Of a DNA stretch of 64,000 nucleotides, positions 35,789 through 39,306 are shown one piece after another. Numbering within the stretch: position 1 is the stretch's first letter; the number at the start of each line of letters is the position of its first letter. The DNA comes from an uncultured Enterobacteriaceae bacterium (GTDB lineage Bacteria; Desulfobacterota; Binatia; Bin18): assembly GCA_964460065.1 (NCBI GenBank), contig CAYWPF010000120.1, positions 151-64,150 on the forward strand. The letters run 5' to 3'. The translations under genes and the position numbers were made by a program. A model generated the notes under the pieces. The model had not been told where the DNA came from. It did not search any database and was given only the letters and a program-made list of their open reading frames with translations.

Positions 35789-36394
35789 TTAATGAACAGG
35801 GGTGTTTTGGGACTTGTGAATATACCGTGTAAGTAACAACTGCATGGTATCGGCGGGTTGTATACCTATCAAAGGGAAGTCTCCCAGGAGGAAAGTGGGG
35901 TACCCTAATATCCCAAACGAGGCAGCTTCACGCTCAGTTGCTAGGACACGATGTGTCAGCGCGCCAGATTGAAGAAGAGGACGTAGTTCGGAGCTTGGTA
36001 GCCCTACCGAGCGTGCTATATCGAGTACCACGTCCAGGTCTGCGATATCGCGCTCGTCTTCAAATGCTGCTCTGAATACGGCGTTGTGGAAGAGTAAGAA
36101 TCCCTGTTGGTCTTTAGCGAATTCTGCCGCTTCTAATGCGTAAGTTGAATCCAACCACGTAGGGGGGATTCGGAGCGGAATGCCCGTCTCTCTGGATACG
36201 CGAATTATTTTTCCTTTCGAGTCGGTGTCAATTACTTCTCCGTTCTTCCACCCTTGGTGACGCCGGACTATTTGGACCCCTTTCCAGAGAAGTGTGGCAT
36301 CTATTTGTGCGTCCAACCGTTCCATCACCCGCGCAGCAATGTAGCTGAGCGAAGAGGCATAGTCGTAATAGACCGGTATGCGCACTTTTAACAT
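35789..36394 (-). CDS. DsbA-like thioredoxin-fold protein lacking the CxxC pair (HCCA-isomerase / kappa-GST-like)
   Basis: MLKVRIPVYYDYASSLSY N-terminus fits the DsbA/FrnE family but with Ser replacing the Cys pair; the longer ORF to 36457 starts on TTG. Confidence 0.55.
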   Translation of the reverse strand: MLKVRIPVYYDYASSLSYIAARVMERLDAQIDATLLWKGVQIVRRHQGWKNGEVIDTDSKGKIIRVSRETGIPLRIPPTWLDSTYALEAAEFAKDQQGFLLFHNAVFRAAFEDERDIADLDVVLDIARSVGLPSSELRPLLQSGALTHRVLATEREAASFGILGYPTFLLGDFPLIGIQPADTMQLLLTRYIHKSQNTPVH

Positions 36395-36483
36395 AAGCGT
36401 GTGTCCCGTTTTCCCGAGTGTACAGGTTTCCTGATTGCAAGGACAACCGGGTTGCAATATAGAAGTATCAGGAGGCGGGAATT

Positions 36484-37083
36484 ATGGGCACAATTGTTGT
36501 ACTTAGTCCTATTGGGGATGTTCGGAGTGATGAGTGGCCTTTAGCAGCGAGGGTTAGCGACCTAGCGCATAGAAGAATCGGATTTCTTAACAACCGCAAA
36601 GCAAATGTGGGTGGTTTGCTTGGATCTCTGGAGTCGTTGCTCCGTGAGCGCCACGGGGAATTCGTCGTTATAAAAGCGGAAAAGAACGCGGCTCTAGCTG
36701 CGCCGAAGGAAGTGATGAACCGGTTGTCAACCTGCGACGCGGTTATCGCAGCTATTGGAGATTGAGGCTCATGTACTTCGTGGGGTATCCACGACGTAGT
36801 TGAACTGGAGAAAAGAGGAATACCGACCGTAATGATTTGTAGCGACGAATTCGCGCCTCTCGGGCGTGCGGAGTCTCAAACACTAGGCATGCCTGGAATC
36901 CCCATCGCGACACTTCGGCACCCACTGGCCGGCAACAAGCCAGCGACTGTCCGAGAAAAGGCCCACAACCTTCTTGAGGAAGTAGTGCGCCTACTCACGG
37001 AGTCGAGTGAAGCGTTGGATAAAGAGTATCGACAGGAACAGGTCGGAACAGGAACGTCTAAGGTGAGAAGTGAAATGGCCTAA
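36484..37083 (+). CDS. candidate selenoprotein, UGSC-motif protein (in-frame TGA at 36763-36765 read as selenocysteine)
   Basis: two same-frame ORFs (36484-36765, 36832-37083) joined with no other stop; TGA codon yields ...AAIGD-U-GSCTSWGIHD...; hairpin 36774-36798 downstream; AGGAGG ribosome-binding site before ATG 36484. Confidence 0.65.
36774..36798 (+). promoter_or_regulatory. bacterial SECIS-like hairpin (stem TACTTCGTGG/CCACGACGTA, apical loop GGUAU)
   Basis: begins 9 nt after the in-frame TGA; 9-10 bp stem with one mismatch and a GGU-containing apical loop about 20 nt from the UGA. Confidence 0.55.
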
Positions 37084-38170
37084 GACCATGCCCAATGAAT
37101 CAATAAAGATAACCTTGGAGGATTCGCTGGAAGTGGTGAACGAGTGGTTCTACGATAAAGGGTGGACGGACGGATTGCCTATCATACCACCTACAGAGGT
37201 TCGTGTTCAAAAGCTAATGGACTGGACAGATCGTAGCCGATCGGAGTCTGTGGGGAGGATGCCGCCGAAATACGGCTCTGCAACGATAGAAAAATTAGCG
37301 ATCAATGCGGTAATGGCTGGATGTACGGGAGAATATTTCCCGATAGTGATTGCTTCCGTGGAAGCTTTGCTGCAGGGCCCGTTCAATCTTTACGGCGTGC
37401 AAAGTACGACGCATCCTTGTGCTCCGTTGGTCGTCGTCAGTGGGCCAATTGCCTCCGAAGTGGGAATTAATGGAAAATATAATGCATTTGGACAGGGGTG
37501 GCGGCCGAATGCCACCATAGGCCGTGCCATTCGGTTGGCGTTATTGAACATAGGTGGAGCTACACCGGGGGGGTTGGATAGAGCTACACAGGGCCAACCG
37601 GGGAAATTTAGCTTTTGTGTCGCGGAAAATGAAACGGCCAATCCGTGGGAACCCCTGCATGTCGAGAAGGGTTACCCGTCGACAACGAGTGTAGTTACGG
37701 TGTGCGGCGCAGAAGGGCCGCATAATATTAACGATCACATTAGTAATTCGGCGCAGGGTATCTTGAAGACGATCGCGAGTACGATGGCGGGGATGGGCTC
37801 TAATAACGCCTATGCTTTTGGTGAGCCTATCCTCGCGCTAGGACCCGAGCACGCTTCGATTTTGGCCAGGGACGGTTTGAGCAAAAACGACATTCGTTAT
37901 TACGTATTTGAAAATGCGCGCGTGCCGAGAAATATGTGGGAGGCTGGCGGGATGGCGGGGATGGGGTTTACGCCGGAAGGTGCTTTTACGGAGGATGCAG
38001 CCATTCCGCTAATACGAGAGCCGCAGTCCCTAATGGTTTTAGTAATAGGCGGCCCAGGGCGGCATTCATGCTGGCTGCCTACCTTTGGCGCTATGACCCG
38101 GACAGTCACACGTCCGATAGCCCTCAAAGACGGGACAGCGGCAAAATCTGTGCACGACTTCAGAAAATAA
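37070..38170 (+). CDS. hypothetical protein (366 aa), translationally coupled to the candidate selenoprotein gene
   Basis: start overlaps the selenoprotein stop by 14 nt; no family recognised. Confidence 0.5.
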   Translation: MKWPKTMPNESIKITLEDSLEVVNEWFYDKGWTDGLPIIPPTEVRVQKLMDWTDRSRSESVGRMPPKYGSATIEKLAINAVMAGCTGEYFPIVIASVEALLQGPFNLYGVQSTTHPCAPLVVVSGPIASEVGINGKYNAFGQGWRPNATIGRAIRLALLNIGGATPGGLDRATQGQPGKFSFCVAENETANPWEPLHVEKGYPSTTSVVTVCGAEGPHNINDHISNSAQGILKTIASTMAGMGSNNAYAFGEPILALGPEHASILARDGLSKNDIRYYVFENARVPRNMWEAGGMAGMGFTPEGAFTEDAAIPLIREPQSLMVLVIGGPGRHSCWLPTFGAMTRTVTRPIALKDGTAAKSVHDFRK

Positions 38171-38259
38171 TATAGGAGTGTAACAGGAAGACGCCATGTT
38201 TTGTCCAATCGGTCGCAAGGGTCGGTGATCACTAGGCGCGAAAGTGTTATTAAAACGTC

Positions 38260-39306
38260 ATGAGAGTAGGGCTAGTCGGGTTCGCACGGTCGGGAAAGAC
38301 CACTGTGTTTAACACGTTAACGGGTATGAGTGCGGCCGTTGGAAGTTTTGAACAGAAACGTGACGCGTCCATTGCAGTAATTAAAGTCCCTGATGCCCGG
38401 GTAGACGCGCTAGCCGATATAGTTGAACCGAGCCAGAAGAAATATGCAGAGGTGACGTTTCTGGACTTTCCTCCTTCTGACGAGCGGAAAGCTGCATTGG
38501 ACAAGCGGTCGCTTACTCAGATGAGAGAAGTGGACGCACTGACACAAGTGGTTCGCGCTTTTGACGACCCCGTAGCGGAGTCGGATATTGACCCGCTGAG
38601 GGACTTGCGGGGCTTTCAATCTGAATTGATCCTCGCGGACATGGAAATCATAGAAAAACGGCTGGGTAGAATAAAAAGGGAGAAAGGACACGAGCGAGAG
38701 GAAAAACTATTGCGTCGATGTTATACGGTGCTTGAAGAGGAAAAGCCTCTTCGGTCAGAGGGATTTCTTCCTGAAGAAGAGATGGCGCTAGCCGGCTTTG
38801 ACTTTCTGAGCAAAAAACCGCTTTTGGTGGTCTACAATGTCGAAGAGAACGAGGTGAATACGAGTTTGCCGGCGGACGTTCTTCGGTATAATGAAGAGCA
38901 GCAACTCGAGACAGTTCTAATTTGCGGAAAAGTGGAAATGGAGATTGCTCAGTTGGAGGAAGAGGAAAGAGGATTGTTTCTTGCTGATTTAGGACTTCAG
39001 GAAGCCGCCCGAGACCGATTTGTGCGGTACGCCTATAACATTTTGAACCTGATGAGCTTTTTTACGGCGGGTCCGATGGAGGCCCGTGCCTGGACGATCG
39101 AGCGTGGTACCGTGGCGCTAAAGGCTGCGGGAAAAATTCATTCGGATATCGAGCGGGGTTTCATAAGAGCAGAGGTGATTTCGTATGACGCCTATATCGA
39201 ACATCGGGGCGAGGCCGGATGTCGTGAGGTTGGGCAAATGCGTCTAGAAGGGAAGGGCTATGTGATGGAAGACGGTGACGTGGTTCATTTCCGTTTTAAG
39301 GTCTGA
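38260..39306 (+). CDS. YchF/Ola1-like P-loop NTPase with C-terminal TGS domain (divergent G motifs)
   Basis: GLVGFARSGKTTVFNTLTG G1 motif; C-terminal DGDVVHFRFKV TGS signature; G3 region not canonical. Confidence 0.6.
   Translation: MRVGLVGFARSGKTTVFNTLTGMSAAVGSFEQKRDASIAVIKVPDARVDALADIVEPSQKKYAEVTFLDFPPSDERKAALDKRSLTQMREVDALTQVVRAFDDPVAESDIDPLRDLRGFQSELILADMEIIEKRLGRIKREKGHEREEKLLRRCYTVLEEEKPLRSEGFLPEEEMALAGFDFLSKKPLLVVYNVEENEVNTSLPADVLRYNEEQQLETVLICGKVEMEIAQLEEEERGLFLADLGLQEAARDRFVRYAYNILNLMSFFTAGPMEARAWTIERGTVALKAAGKIHSDIERGFIRAEVISYDAYIEHRGEAGCREVGQMRLEGKGYVMEDGDVVHFRFKV

Follow-up and report, generated by a model that had tools for sequence, protein, structure and literature searches.

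In a 64,000-nucleotide stretch of DNA from an uncultured bacterium of the Binatia (the window; contig CAYWPF010000120.1 of assembly GCA_964460065.1, forward strand), the gene for a UGSC family selenoprotein (36484..37083, + strand) is followed on the same strand by a gene for an unnamed protein (37070..38170), which we call X and number from the GTG at 37070. It is almost certain that UGSC works together with X as its partner in a reductase linked to the thioredoxin system, and because X almost always lies beside UGSC or is fused to it, the two probably make up one reductase. In our preferred reading, to which we give a probability of roughly 0.7, X is the large and UGSC the small subunit of a selenol/thiol-dependent reductase fed by the thioredoxin system; what we say of its substrate and of the residue that attacks it is inference. 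The original prediction, made from the letters of the window, had suspected an uncharacterised redox module at this site, and its core idea is strongly supported by the adjacency of the two genes, by fusions between them and to domains resembling thioredoxin reductase or ferredoxin:thioredoxin reductase (FTR), by co-divergence and by a predicted complex.

Pairing of X with UGSC across genomes

A scan centred on X and limited to one genome per species gave at least 610 relatives, whose best 80 loci we examined; as the closest 80 and related to each other, they report on inheritance as a unit and not on independent events. In 70 of these 80 loci, all from other species, a UGSC gene lay on the same strand within 3 kb, and in 67 of the 70 it was directly adjacent to X, upstream in 48 and downstream in 19. 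Approached from the other side, 18 of the 151 genomes in a sample of the phylum contained UGSC, with as many as 14 matches in one of them, and every one of 27 new UGSC-centred loci (17 other genomes) had X on the same strand within 1.5 kb. The source genome (3.0 Mb) itself has five places with X and five with UGSC, all paired, and an in-frame TGA in every UGSC gene; the order is UGSC-X in the pair of the window and X-UGSC in the other four. Its X paralogs are 36-43% identical and its UGSC paralogs 29-32% (four pairs with intact X). At the sequence level these paralogous pairs are old, and the presence of five diverged pairs in a genome of this size suggests several substrate specificities.

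Fusion of the two proteins was seen in either order. Among the 80 loci, 14 had them in frame with a stop-free linker, 13 as UGSC-X and one as X-UGSC. The best 150 of the representatives of clusters at 50% identity comprised 77 with X alone and 63 with UGSC in the same chain, as confirmed with Pfam for the 20 checked. Nineteen of these 63 are full length, three are X-UGSC chains that end at the selenocysteine (Sec) codon, and 41 begin just past that codon; the last are Sec-type fusions truncated by gene callers.

The two genes have also diverged together: for 59 of the 95 adjacent pairs, a single other locus supplied the closest relative of both X and UGSC. Gene order equalled that of the nearest relative in 92 of the 95, and as a label on a quick maximum-likelihood tree (not the product of a careful tree search) it required three changes, compared to a mean of 27 after shuffling, with none of 500 shuffles as low. 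Altogether, the genes for X and UGSC behave as one unit in inheritance and duplication, and often in fusion. The fixed pair of selenoprotein and partner that had been proposed from this single locus is hence borne out by adjacency in both directions, fusions in both orders and co-divergence, and the check suggested for it, conservation of the gene neighbourhood, came out in its favour whether X or UGSC was used as the starting point.

Several unusual copies turned up in these surveys. One of the five X copies of the source genome (L005/L006; C47:35129-36147, minus strand) is split over two frames that cover profile positions 7-253 and 255-351, next to an intact UGSC neighbour, and is either a frameshifted pseudogene or an assembly error. 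A UGSC-X pair lies on a contig labelled Candidatus Nitrosocosmicus sp. (L063, from an archaeal-labelled metagenome-assembled genome); its X groups with a Rokuibacteriota sequence with a Shimodaira-Hasegawa-like approximate likelihood ratio test value of 100, which could reflect horizontal transfer or a binning artefact. At L087:823-4023, X forms the C-terminal third of an open frame of 1066 codons whose first ~725 residues have no Pfam match, a real fusion or an over-long open reading frame (ORF) in GC-rich DNA. Rare long forms that contain both X and UGSC (P0464, 922 aa; P0423-P0425, ~1210-1250 aa) have extra domains of the FGE-sulfatase (PF03781) or the copper amine oxidase N-terminal-like (PF07833) type. 

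Identity of the two genes

Homologs of X are numerous: 7315 of 8000 scored candidates matched at E <= 0.001, and an exhaustive search of the 50%-identity cluster representatives found 5574 that match at E <= 0.001, of which 1425 reach E <= 1e-30. By this breadth of homology X is a real gene and not a chance ORF. The original prediction had the ORF right (37070..38170, + strand, 366 aa, with both peptides quoted from it present) and could place it in no family, which holds as well: X matched no Pfam and no NCBIfam family at E <= 0.1, so that the profile search proposed as a check gave no confident match to a housekeeping family in either collection. Among the 72 aligned X members no Pfam match at E <= 1 was recurrent (best E 0.026, at most two members per family), the Protein Data Bank (PDB) searched by sequence with X and UGSC returned only chance-level rows (E 0.15 or worse), and the ESM Atlas returned for X only unnamed or 'hypothetical' clusters. 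Every one of the 120 homologs listed is called 'hypothetical protein' at its source.

A counterpart was, however, found in the literature. Zhang & Gladyshev (2008; PMC2398784) describe in their Fig. S1A a 'UGSC/Unknown_1' fusion from ocean reads, with an alignment of the form AxNxVMAGCxPEYxP...TT..., one conserved Cys and unknown function in the part of the paper available to us. The published block (AVNGVMAGCRPEYMPIL...TT...VNGP) matches X at residues ~78-125 (AINAVMAGCTGEYFPIV...VQSTTHPCAPLVVVSGP); the pattern A-x-N-x-V-M-A-G-C-x-P-E-Y-x-P ... T-T ... V-N-G-P is present in both the X translation and the family consensus, and the Unknown_1 domain is fused to UGSC much as X, which is found fused to or beside UGSC, has it as its adjacent gene at this locus. 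By sequence, then, X is of the same family as Unknown_1, and the link between UGSC and the X domain is not wholly new. Relative to the portions of that account we could consult, the neighbourhood rule, the reverse-order fusions, the thioredoxin-reductase and FTR fusions, the structure and the complex model are additions made here. In open-text passages the 2008 fusion is the sole statement on X that we found; subscription papers may add more. UGSC itself appears in the accessible text of four papers as a selenoprotein of unknown function (PMC1976440, PMC2398784, PMC9312934, PMC13188914), the last of them a 2026 review that counts it among selenoproteins whose functions 'remain largely uncharacterized'.

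The upstream gene (36484..37083, + strand; 199 codons and a stop, with TGA read as Sec) bears the motif Sec94-Gly-Ser-Cys97, with its Sec codon at 36763..36765. Its product scores above the curated cut-offs for UGSC both in Pfam (PF24696, E 1.7e-48, 165.4 bits against a cut-off of 25) and in NCBIfam (NF041046, 139.9 bits against 125). Folding of 36760-36815 gave a hairpin at 36762..36809 (+ strand) that runs from the Sec codon on and resembles a selenocysteine insertion sequence (SECIS) element; with a minimum free energy of -16.3 kcal/mol, a z of -2.1 and an equal or better fold in 8 of 200 shuffles, it gives modest support to such an element. At the same motif position TGA occurs in 62 of 70 related loci and TGC in one, the motif pattern finding none in the other seven. 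SelB is encoded in the source genome (C25:78975-80867; 387.8 bits, cut-off 242), which has at least eight TGA-containing selenoprotein candidates; SelA (TIGR00474) was not detected in this 169-contig draft, 97.7% complete, which is not evidence of its absence.

The start of X is not settled between two codons, GTG 37070 (366 aa) and ATG 37088..37090 (+ strand; Met7, 360 aa), the latter four nucleotides past the UGSC stop codon (TAA 37081-37083). P0002, which at 95% identity is the closest homolog and has 360 aa, begins at the equivalent of this ATG, its N-terminus MPKESMKITL coinciding with Met7 of X; 360 aa is the length of many close homologs, and residues 1-6 of X are not conserved among them. 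A Shine-Dalgarno-like string, AAGGTGAG at 37060-37067, suits the GTG better. The 14-nt overlap between the two genes that had been taken as a sign of co-translation follows from the longest-ORF rule: it holds for the GTG start, but P0002 starts at the other codon, and since UGSC and X are ~100 nt apart in the locus of the nearest relative (L012), the overlap is not a family trait. Spacing here is tight with either start (-14 or +4 nt). A promoter and terminator scan, itself uninformative, turned up no terminator-like site in 36250-38450.

Predicted structure and complex, and probable electron supply

An AlphaFold2 model of X, based on an alignment of 72 family sequences (A1) that also served for the conservation counts, was very confident (mean predicted local distance difference test value, pLDDT, 95.6; predicted template modelling score 0.94). 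The best Foldseek matches of this model were class I fumarate hydratases (E ~1e-3, template modelling score 0.25-0.30), and none of the matches was a convincing solved relative. The prediction and fold search proposed for X have thus been carried through to a confident model that has no such relative, although a weak or missing match does not by itself prove a new fold. No thioredoxin-fold chain was among the structure matches listed for the whole model or its N-domain, which leaves room for one in unlisted families.

Six residues are invariant in all 72 sequences (G84, P91, G151, R152, E186 and G327), and conservation reaches at least 90% in D34-G-L-P, P41-T42, N79, the A-V-M-A-G-C85 block, T114, N147, C183 and W193. 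X is thereby shown to have a polar core of its own, made up of Asp34, Cys85, Thr113/114, Asn147, Arg152 and Glu186. Arg152 and Glu186 are encoded at 37523..37525 and 37625..37627 (both + strand). Cys85 (37322..37324, + strand), the candidate catalytic or redox cysteine, is Cys in 70 of 72 homologs, and each of the 85 loci examined has it in its main X copy; the model sets it in a three-residue loop joining helices 73-83 and 87-100. The other conserved cysteine, Cys183 (37616..37618, + strand; 68 of 72), is dispensable, and no CxxC or UxxC is conserved within X, these two single cysteines being 98 positions apart. An obligatory disulfide between Cys85 and Cys183 is unlikely and was rejected: six of the 80 loci have L, V, A or T in place of Cys183 and yet retain an adjacent UGSC. 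The cysteines in the peptides quoted earlier, HPCAP (C117) and HSCW, turned out not to be conserved in the alignment.

The complex was predicted not for the pair of this locus but for the natural Cys-type pair of L026, whose X is 49% identical, using alignments A4 and A3; adding five to the L026 X numbering gives that used here (77, 101 and 107-110, for example, become 82, 106 and 112-115). The interface score based on predicted aligned errors (ipSAE) was 0.84, compared to 0.00 for the best of three controls, and clears a mark that 116 of 157 solved complexes attain, as do 2 of 215 mismatched pairs. Separate runs shared at least 84% of contacts, with a partner pLDDT of at least 86 and an interface of 166-181 contacts. 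Since no similar complex has been solved, as judged by the PDB sequence search with X and UGSC, such a pass is unlikely to reflect memorisation by the model. UGSC contributes to the confident interface its N-terminal 14 residues, positions 94-96 (the Cys at the Sec position, Gly and Ser), 98-100 and Phe123, and X contributes, in our numbering, 40-43 (the P-P-T motif), 65-72, 78-79, 82, 106, 112-115 (an S/T-T-T-H loop) and 156-171. The model hence predicts a tight complex at whose interface the Sec-position residues of UGSC adjoin conserved loops of X. At family level it supports, but does not show, binding and a shared active site.

Fusions of X to other domains point to a source of electrons. 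Of the 208 relatives of at least 642 aa found at E <= 1e-10, the best 120 were listed: PF24696 was present in 87, Pyr_redox_2 in 29 and TctC in one, and three had no Pfam domain. Several of the proteins combining Pyr_redox_2 with X are named thioredoxin reductase by the Joint Genome Institute, and two flavoproteins fused to X keep a CxxC (CAVCDA and CADCDG). One further X relative has an N-terminal FTR catalytic domain in which CPC...CPC...CHC is kept. A thioredoxin-reductase-like gene also lies directly upstream of UGSC in L027, L033 and L034, including operons with a second X-like paralog. Taken as sequence evidence, these flavoprotein and FTR links point to NAD(P)H or ferredoxin as the electron source of a thiol/selenol relay.

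The second, diverged X-like paralog (X') stands directly 3' of X in L028, L033, L034, L040, L062 and L067, in alphaproteobacterial operons that read thioredoxin-reductase-like, UGSC, X, X'. X' keeps most of the D/C/T/N/R/C/E core, the copy in L040 having Ala at the Cys85 position. Proteins of ~720-740 aa without a Pfam domain (P0210, P0247 and P0419-P0421) were also seen, two of which, P0210 and P0247, match X in two or three stretches and look like tandem X-X fusions. 

A proposed two-part reductase, its alternatives and its surroundings

In the mechanism we favour, X and UGSC would be a two-part enzyme, a single chain in many lineages, with its active site built at the interface between them. 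X would bind a small substrate, with the invariant Arg152 hinting at a carboxylate, and Cys85 of X together with the U94-x-x-C97 pair of UGSC would carry out a two-electron reduction through a sulfur-selenium relay by way of a mixed selenosulfide. The oxidised U-C pair would then be reduced again by the thioredoxin system, the donors in some lineages being thioredoxin-reductase-like flavoproteins that depend on NAD(P)H and either are fused to X or have their gene just upstream, and in another lineage a fused FTR-type catalytic domain. The chemistry may resemble that of the selenoprotein B family, in which case the Sec would attack a substrate held by a non-homologous partner subunit.

This last possibility arises because UGSC appears to be a remote relative of the Sec-bearing part of selenoprotein B. 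Outside its own family UGSC matched only selenoprotein B families (TIGR01917, TIGR01918, GrdH and GrdF), all far below cut-offs; TIGR01917 gave E 5e-7, aligning residues 41-160 with profile positions 296-407 of 431, and TIGR01918 gave E 6.8e-6. Matches to GrdB-type families were obtained for 6, 3 and 1 of 67 Cys-type UGSC proteins, which matched no other non-UGSC family, and a profile alignment with hhalign against the GRDB-family proteins of the source genome, although not significant, set C-G-S-C against U-P-L-C. The relationship to GrdB is suggestive at the level of sequence. In their architecture, the protein B systems of the glycine/sarcosine/betaine (Grd) and D-proline (Prd) reductases (GrdB/F/H with GrdE/G/I; PrdB with PrdA) are also alike in pairing a UxxC selenoprotein obligatorily with a larger protein. 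Grd electrons come from the thioredoxin system, a supply to which gene fusion points here. However, X shares no homology with GrdE/PrdA and gives no sign of a pyruvoyl group, UGSC has only ~200 aa and scores far below the selenoprotein B family cut-offs, the hosts are mostly aerobic or environmental lineages and not Stickland fermenters, and no GrdA-like or GrdC/D-like genes were seen adjoining the X-UGSC pairs examined. 

With its one nearly universal Cys, X recalls the methionine sulfoxide reductase (Msr), 1-Cys peroxiredoxin and ArsC types, and the pair shares with thioredoxin-dependent reductases a dithiol-type partner motif, here selenol-thiol, and NAD(P)H disulfide reductase domains with a retained CxxC as fusion partners. 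In sequence X is nevertheless unrelated to any of these three types, no fold relation to them showed among the structure matches listed, and UGSC, a dedicated selenoprotein with a large predicted interface, differs from a freely diffusing thioredoxin.

A number of observations weigh against a reductase of this kind. The complex score expresses the confidence of the model in its own prediction and stems from a homologous pair. Cys85 (Cys80 in L026) is absent from the low-error contact residues, in which its neighbours are present. UGSC was absent within 3 kb in 10 of the 80 X loci, two of them truncated where the contig ends. The relationship of UGSC to GrdB is weak (20-29 bits, far below curated cut-offs), and a UGSC profile compared with the three GRDB-family proteins of the source genome was not significant by hhalign (probability 0.57, E 0.1) and reached only E 0.04 or worse, with one target, by hmmsearch. 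Not one of the 72 X members resembled GrdE/PrdA (PF09338) at E <= 1. Finally, the genes around the pair vary (TctC, CoA-transferase III, luciferase-like monooxygenases, PrpD, short-chain dehydrogenases/reductases, amidohydrolases, dihydrodipicolinate synthase-like proteins, RidA, MaoC and major facilitator superfamily transporters) and point to no single pathway.

Of the other explanations, one differs from the favoured reading only in which residue attacks the substrate: X might need no residue but Cys85 to turn over its substrate, after the fashion of Msr, 1-Cys peroxiredoxin or ArsC, while UGSC acts off the substrate as a dedicated thioredoxin-like recycler. It would account for UGSC never occurring without X (27 of 27) when X lacks an adjacent UGSC in 10 of 80 loci, and for the direct fusion of X to thioredoxin-reductase-like and FTR-like domains; moreover, in the model Cys85 lies just ahead of helix 87-100, and a Cys just before a helix is a common setting for reactive cysteines. 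But all five of the genomes tested among those with a UGSC-less X locus carry UGSC elsewhere, so that independence of X from UGSC is not shown, and an interface of 166-181 contacts that includes the UxxC loop looks like a shared active site and not like the footing of a transient reductant. We consider this arrangement unlikely. A strict analogue of glycine or proline reductase, in which X cleaves itself (for example at Gly84|Cys85) to form a pyruvoyl group that binds an amine whose C-N bond is cleaved by the Sec of UGSC, is more doubtful still. The selenoprotein B matches of UGSC speak for it, as do the invariant Gly84 and nearly invariant Cys85; selenoprotein B, as far as is known, always works with a GrdE/PrdA-type partner, and Gly-Ser/Cys junctions serve several pyruvoyl enzymes. 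Against this stand the failure of all 72 X members to match PF09338, the position of Cys85 in a short loop between two helices, not strands, in the model, and the source genome, in which no PF09338 gene was found, although control genomes gave no signal either and the sensitivity of that search is unclear. An X profile found no match in the three GRDB-family selenoproteins of this genome.

That X is no enzyme at all, but a maturation, scaffold or regulatory partner of UGSC, or a protein redox-switched by it, we regard as very improbable. Neither protein has a known catalytic function, and obligate pairing would fit a chaperone or regulator, but X exceeds UGSC both in size and in conservation (36-43% between paralogs, versus 29-32% for UGSC), has an invariant Arg and Glu besides near-invariant Asp, Cys, Thr and Asn, and the pair is found among catabolic genes, with up to 14 UGSC matches in a genome. 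The weak fold likeness to class I fumarate hydratase and to CyuA could be read to mean that X is an iron-sulfur hydro-lyase-like protein whose cluster UGSC repairs or supplies with ligands. We give this almost no credence; of the three Cys ligands that a [4Fe-4S] cluster takes in such enzymes, X offers only the conserved C85 and C183.

A two-part reductase formed by X and UGSC thus remains our preferred reading, and no third gene was found to be conserved with the pair: the commonest neighbour cluster, TctC, occurred in at most 11 of 85 loci, in a naive ORF-based clustering polluted by antisense ORFs in GC-rich loci. A DUF6282 gene (PF19799) is placed between UGSC and X in L021, L023 and L027 and nearby at L032:5950-6849, and may be a lineage-specific third component. 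The DsbA-like gene divergent from the pair in the window (35789..36457, - strand; PF01323, E 7.4e-21) had been counted with the module. It does lie beside the pair, but it recurs in only one of the 80 other loci, that of the closest relative (L012), and was rejected as a third member of the unit. Its product reads A-S-S-L-S at what we take to be the CxxC site of DsbA-family proteins, and from its sequence is probably not a thiol-disulfide oxidoreductase; it matches the Rcas_1661 (seleno)lipoprotein family weakly (34.7 bits, cut-off 190).

The three GRDB-family selenoprotein candidates of the source genome (PF07355, E 6.8e-18 to 5e-7; contigs C10, C47 and C87) are at L092:1408-2334, L093:1423-2637 and L094:1430-2590. 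With the standard bacterial code (table 11) each ORF ends in ...L-L-(T/V)-P-V ahead of a TGA; read on in frame as U-P-(L/V)-C..., the products have 309, 405 and 387 aa, and the halves beyond the Sec have no Pfam match. Genes for NuoG-like, luciferase-like, and Amidohydro_2 and GST proteins are their neighbours.

With an obligate partner that is larger and better conserved, candidate catalytic residues, electron donors and a confidently predicted complex, UGSC ceases to be an orphan selenoprotein and becomes part of a pair of proteins open to expression and assay. The X family is very large (5574 clusters at 50% identity) and is found in neither Pfam nor NCBIfam, and as its confident model has no solved structural relative, a structure of X would probably define a new enzyme fold. 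More speculatively, X and UGSC might be a widespread Se-dependent reductase of unseen fold that draws on NAD(P)H via thioredoxin-reductase-like proteins and, through many substrate-specific paralogs, reductively breaks C-N, C-S or C-O bonds that adjoin a carboxylate, in the manner of Grd and Prd; organic acids, amines or osmolytes would be its targets. We think this a long shot, but if true, one of the most abundant environmental selenoproteins would mark an unrecognised route for the catabolism of dissolved organic matter in non-fermenting bacteria.

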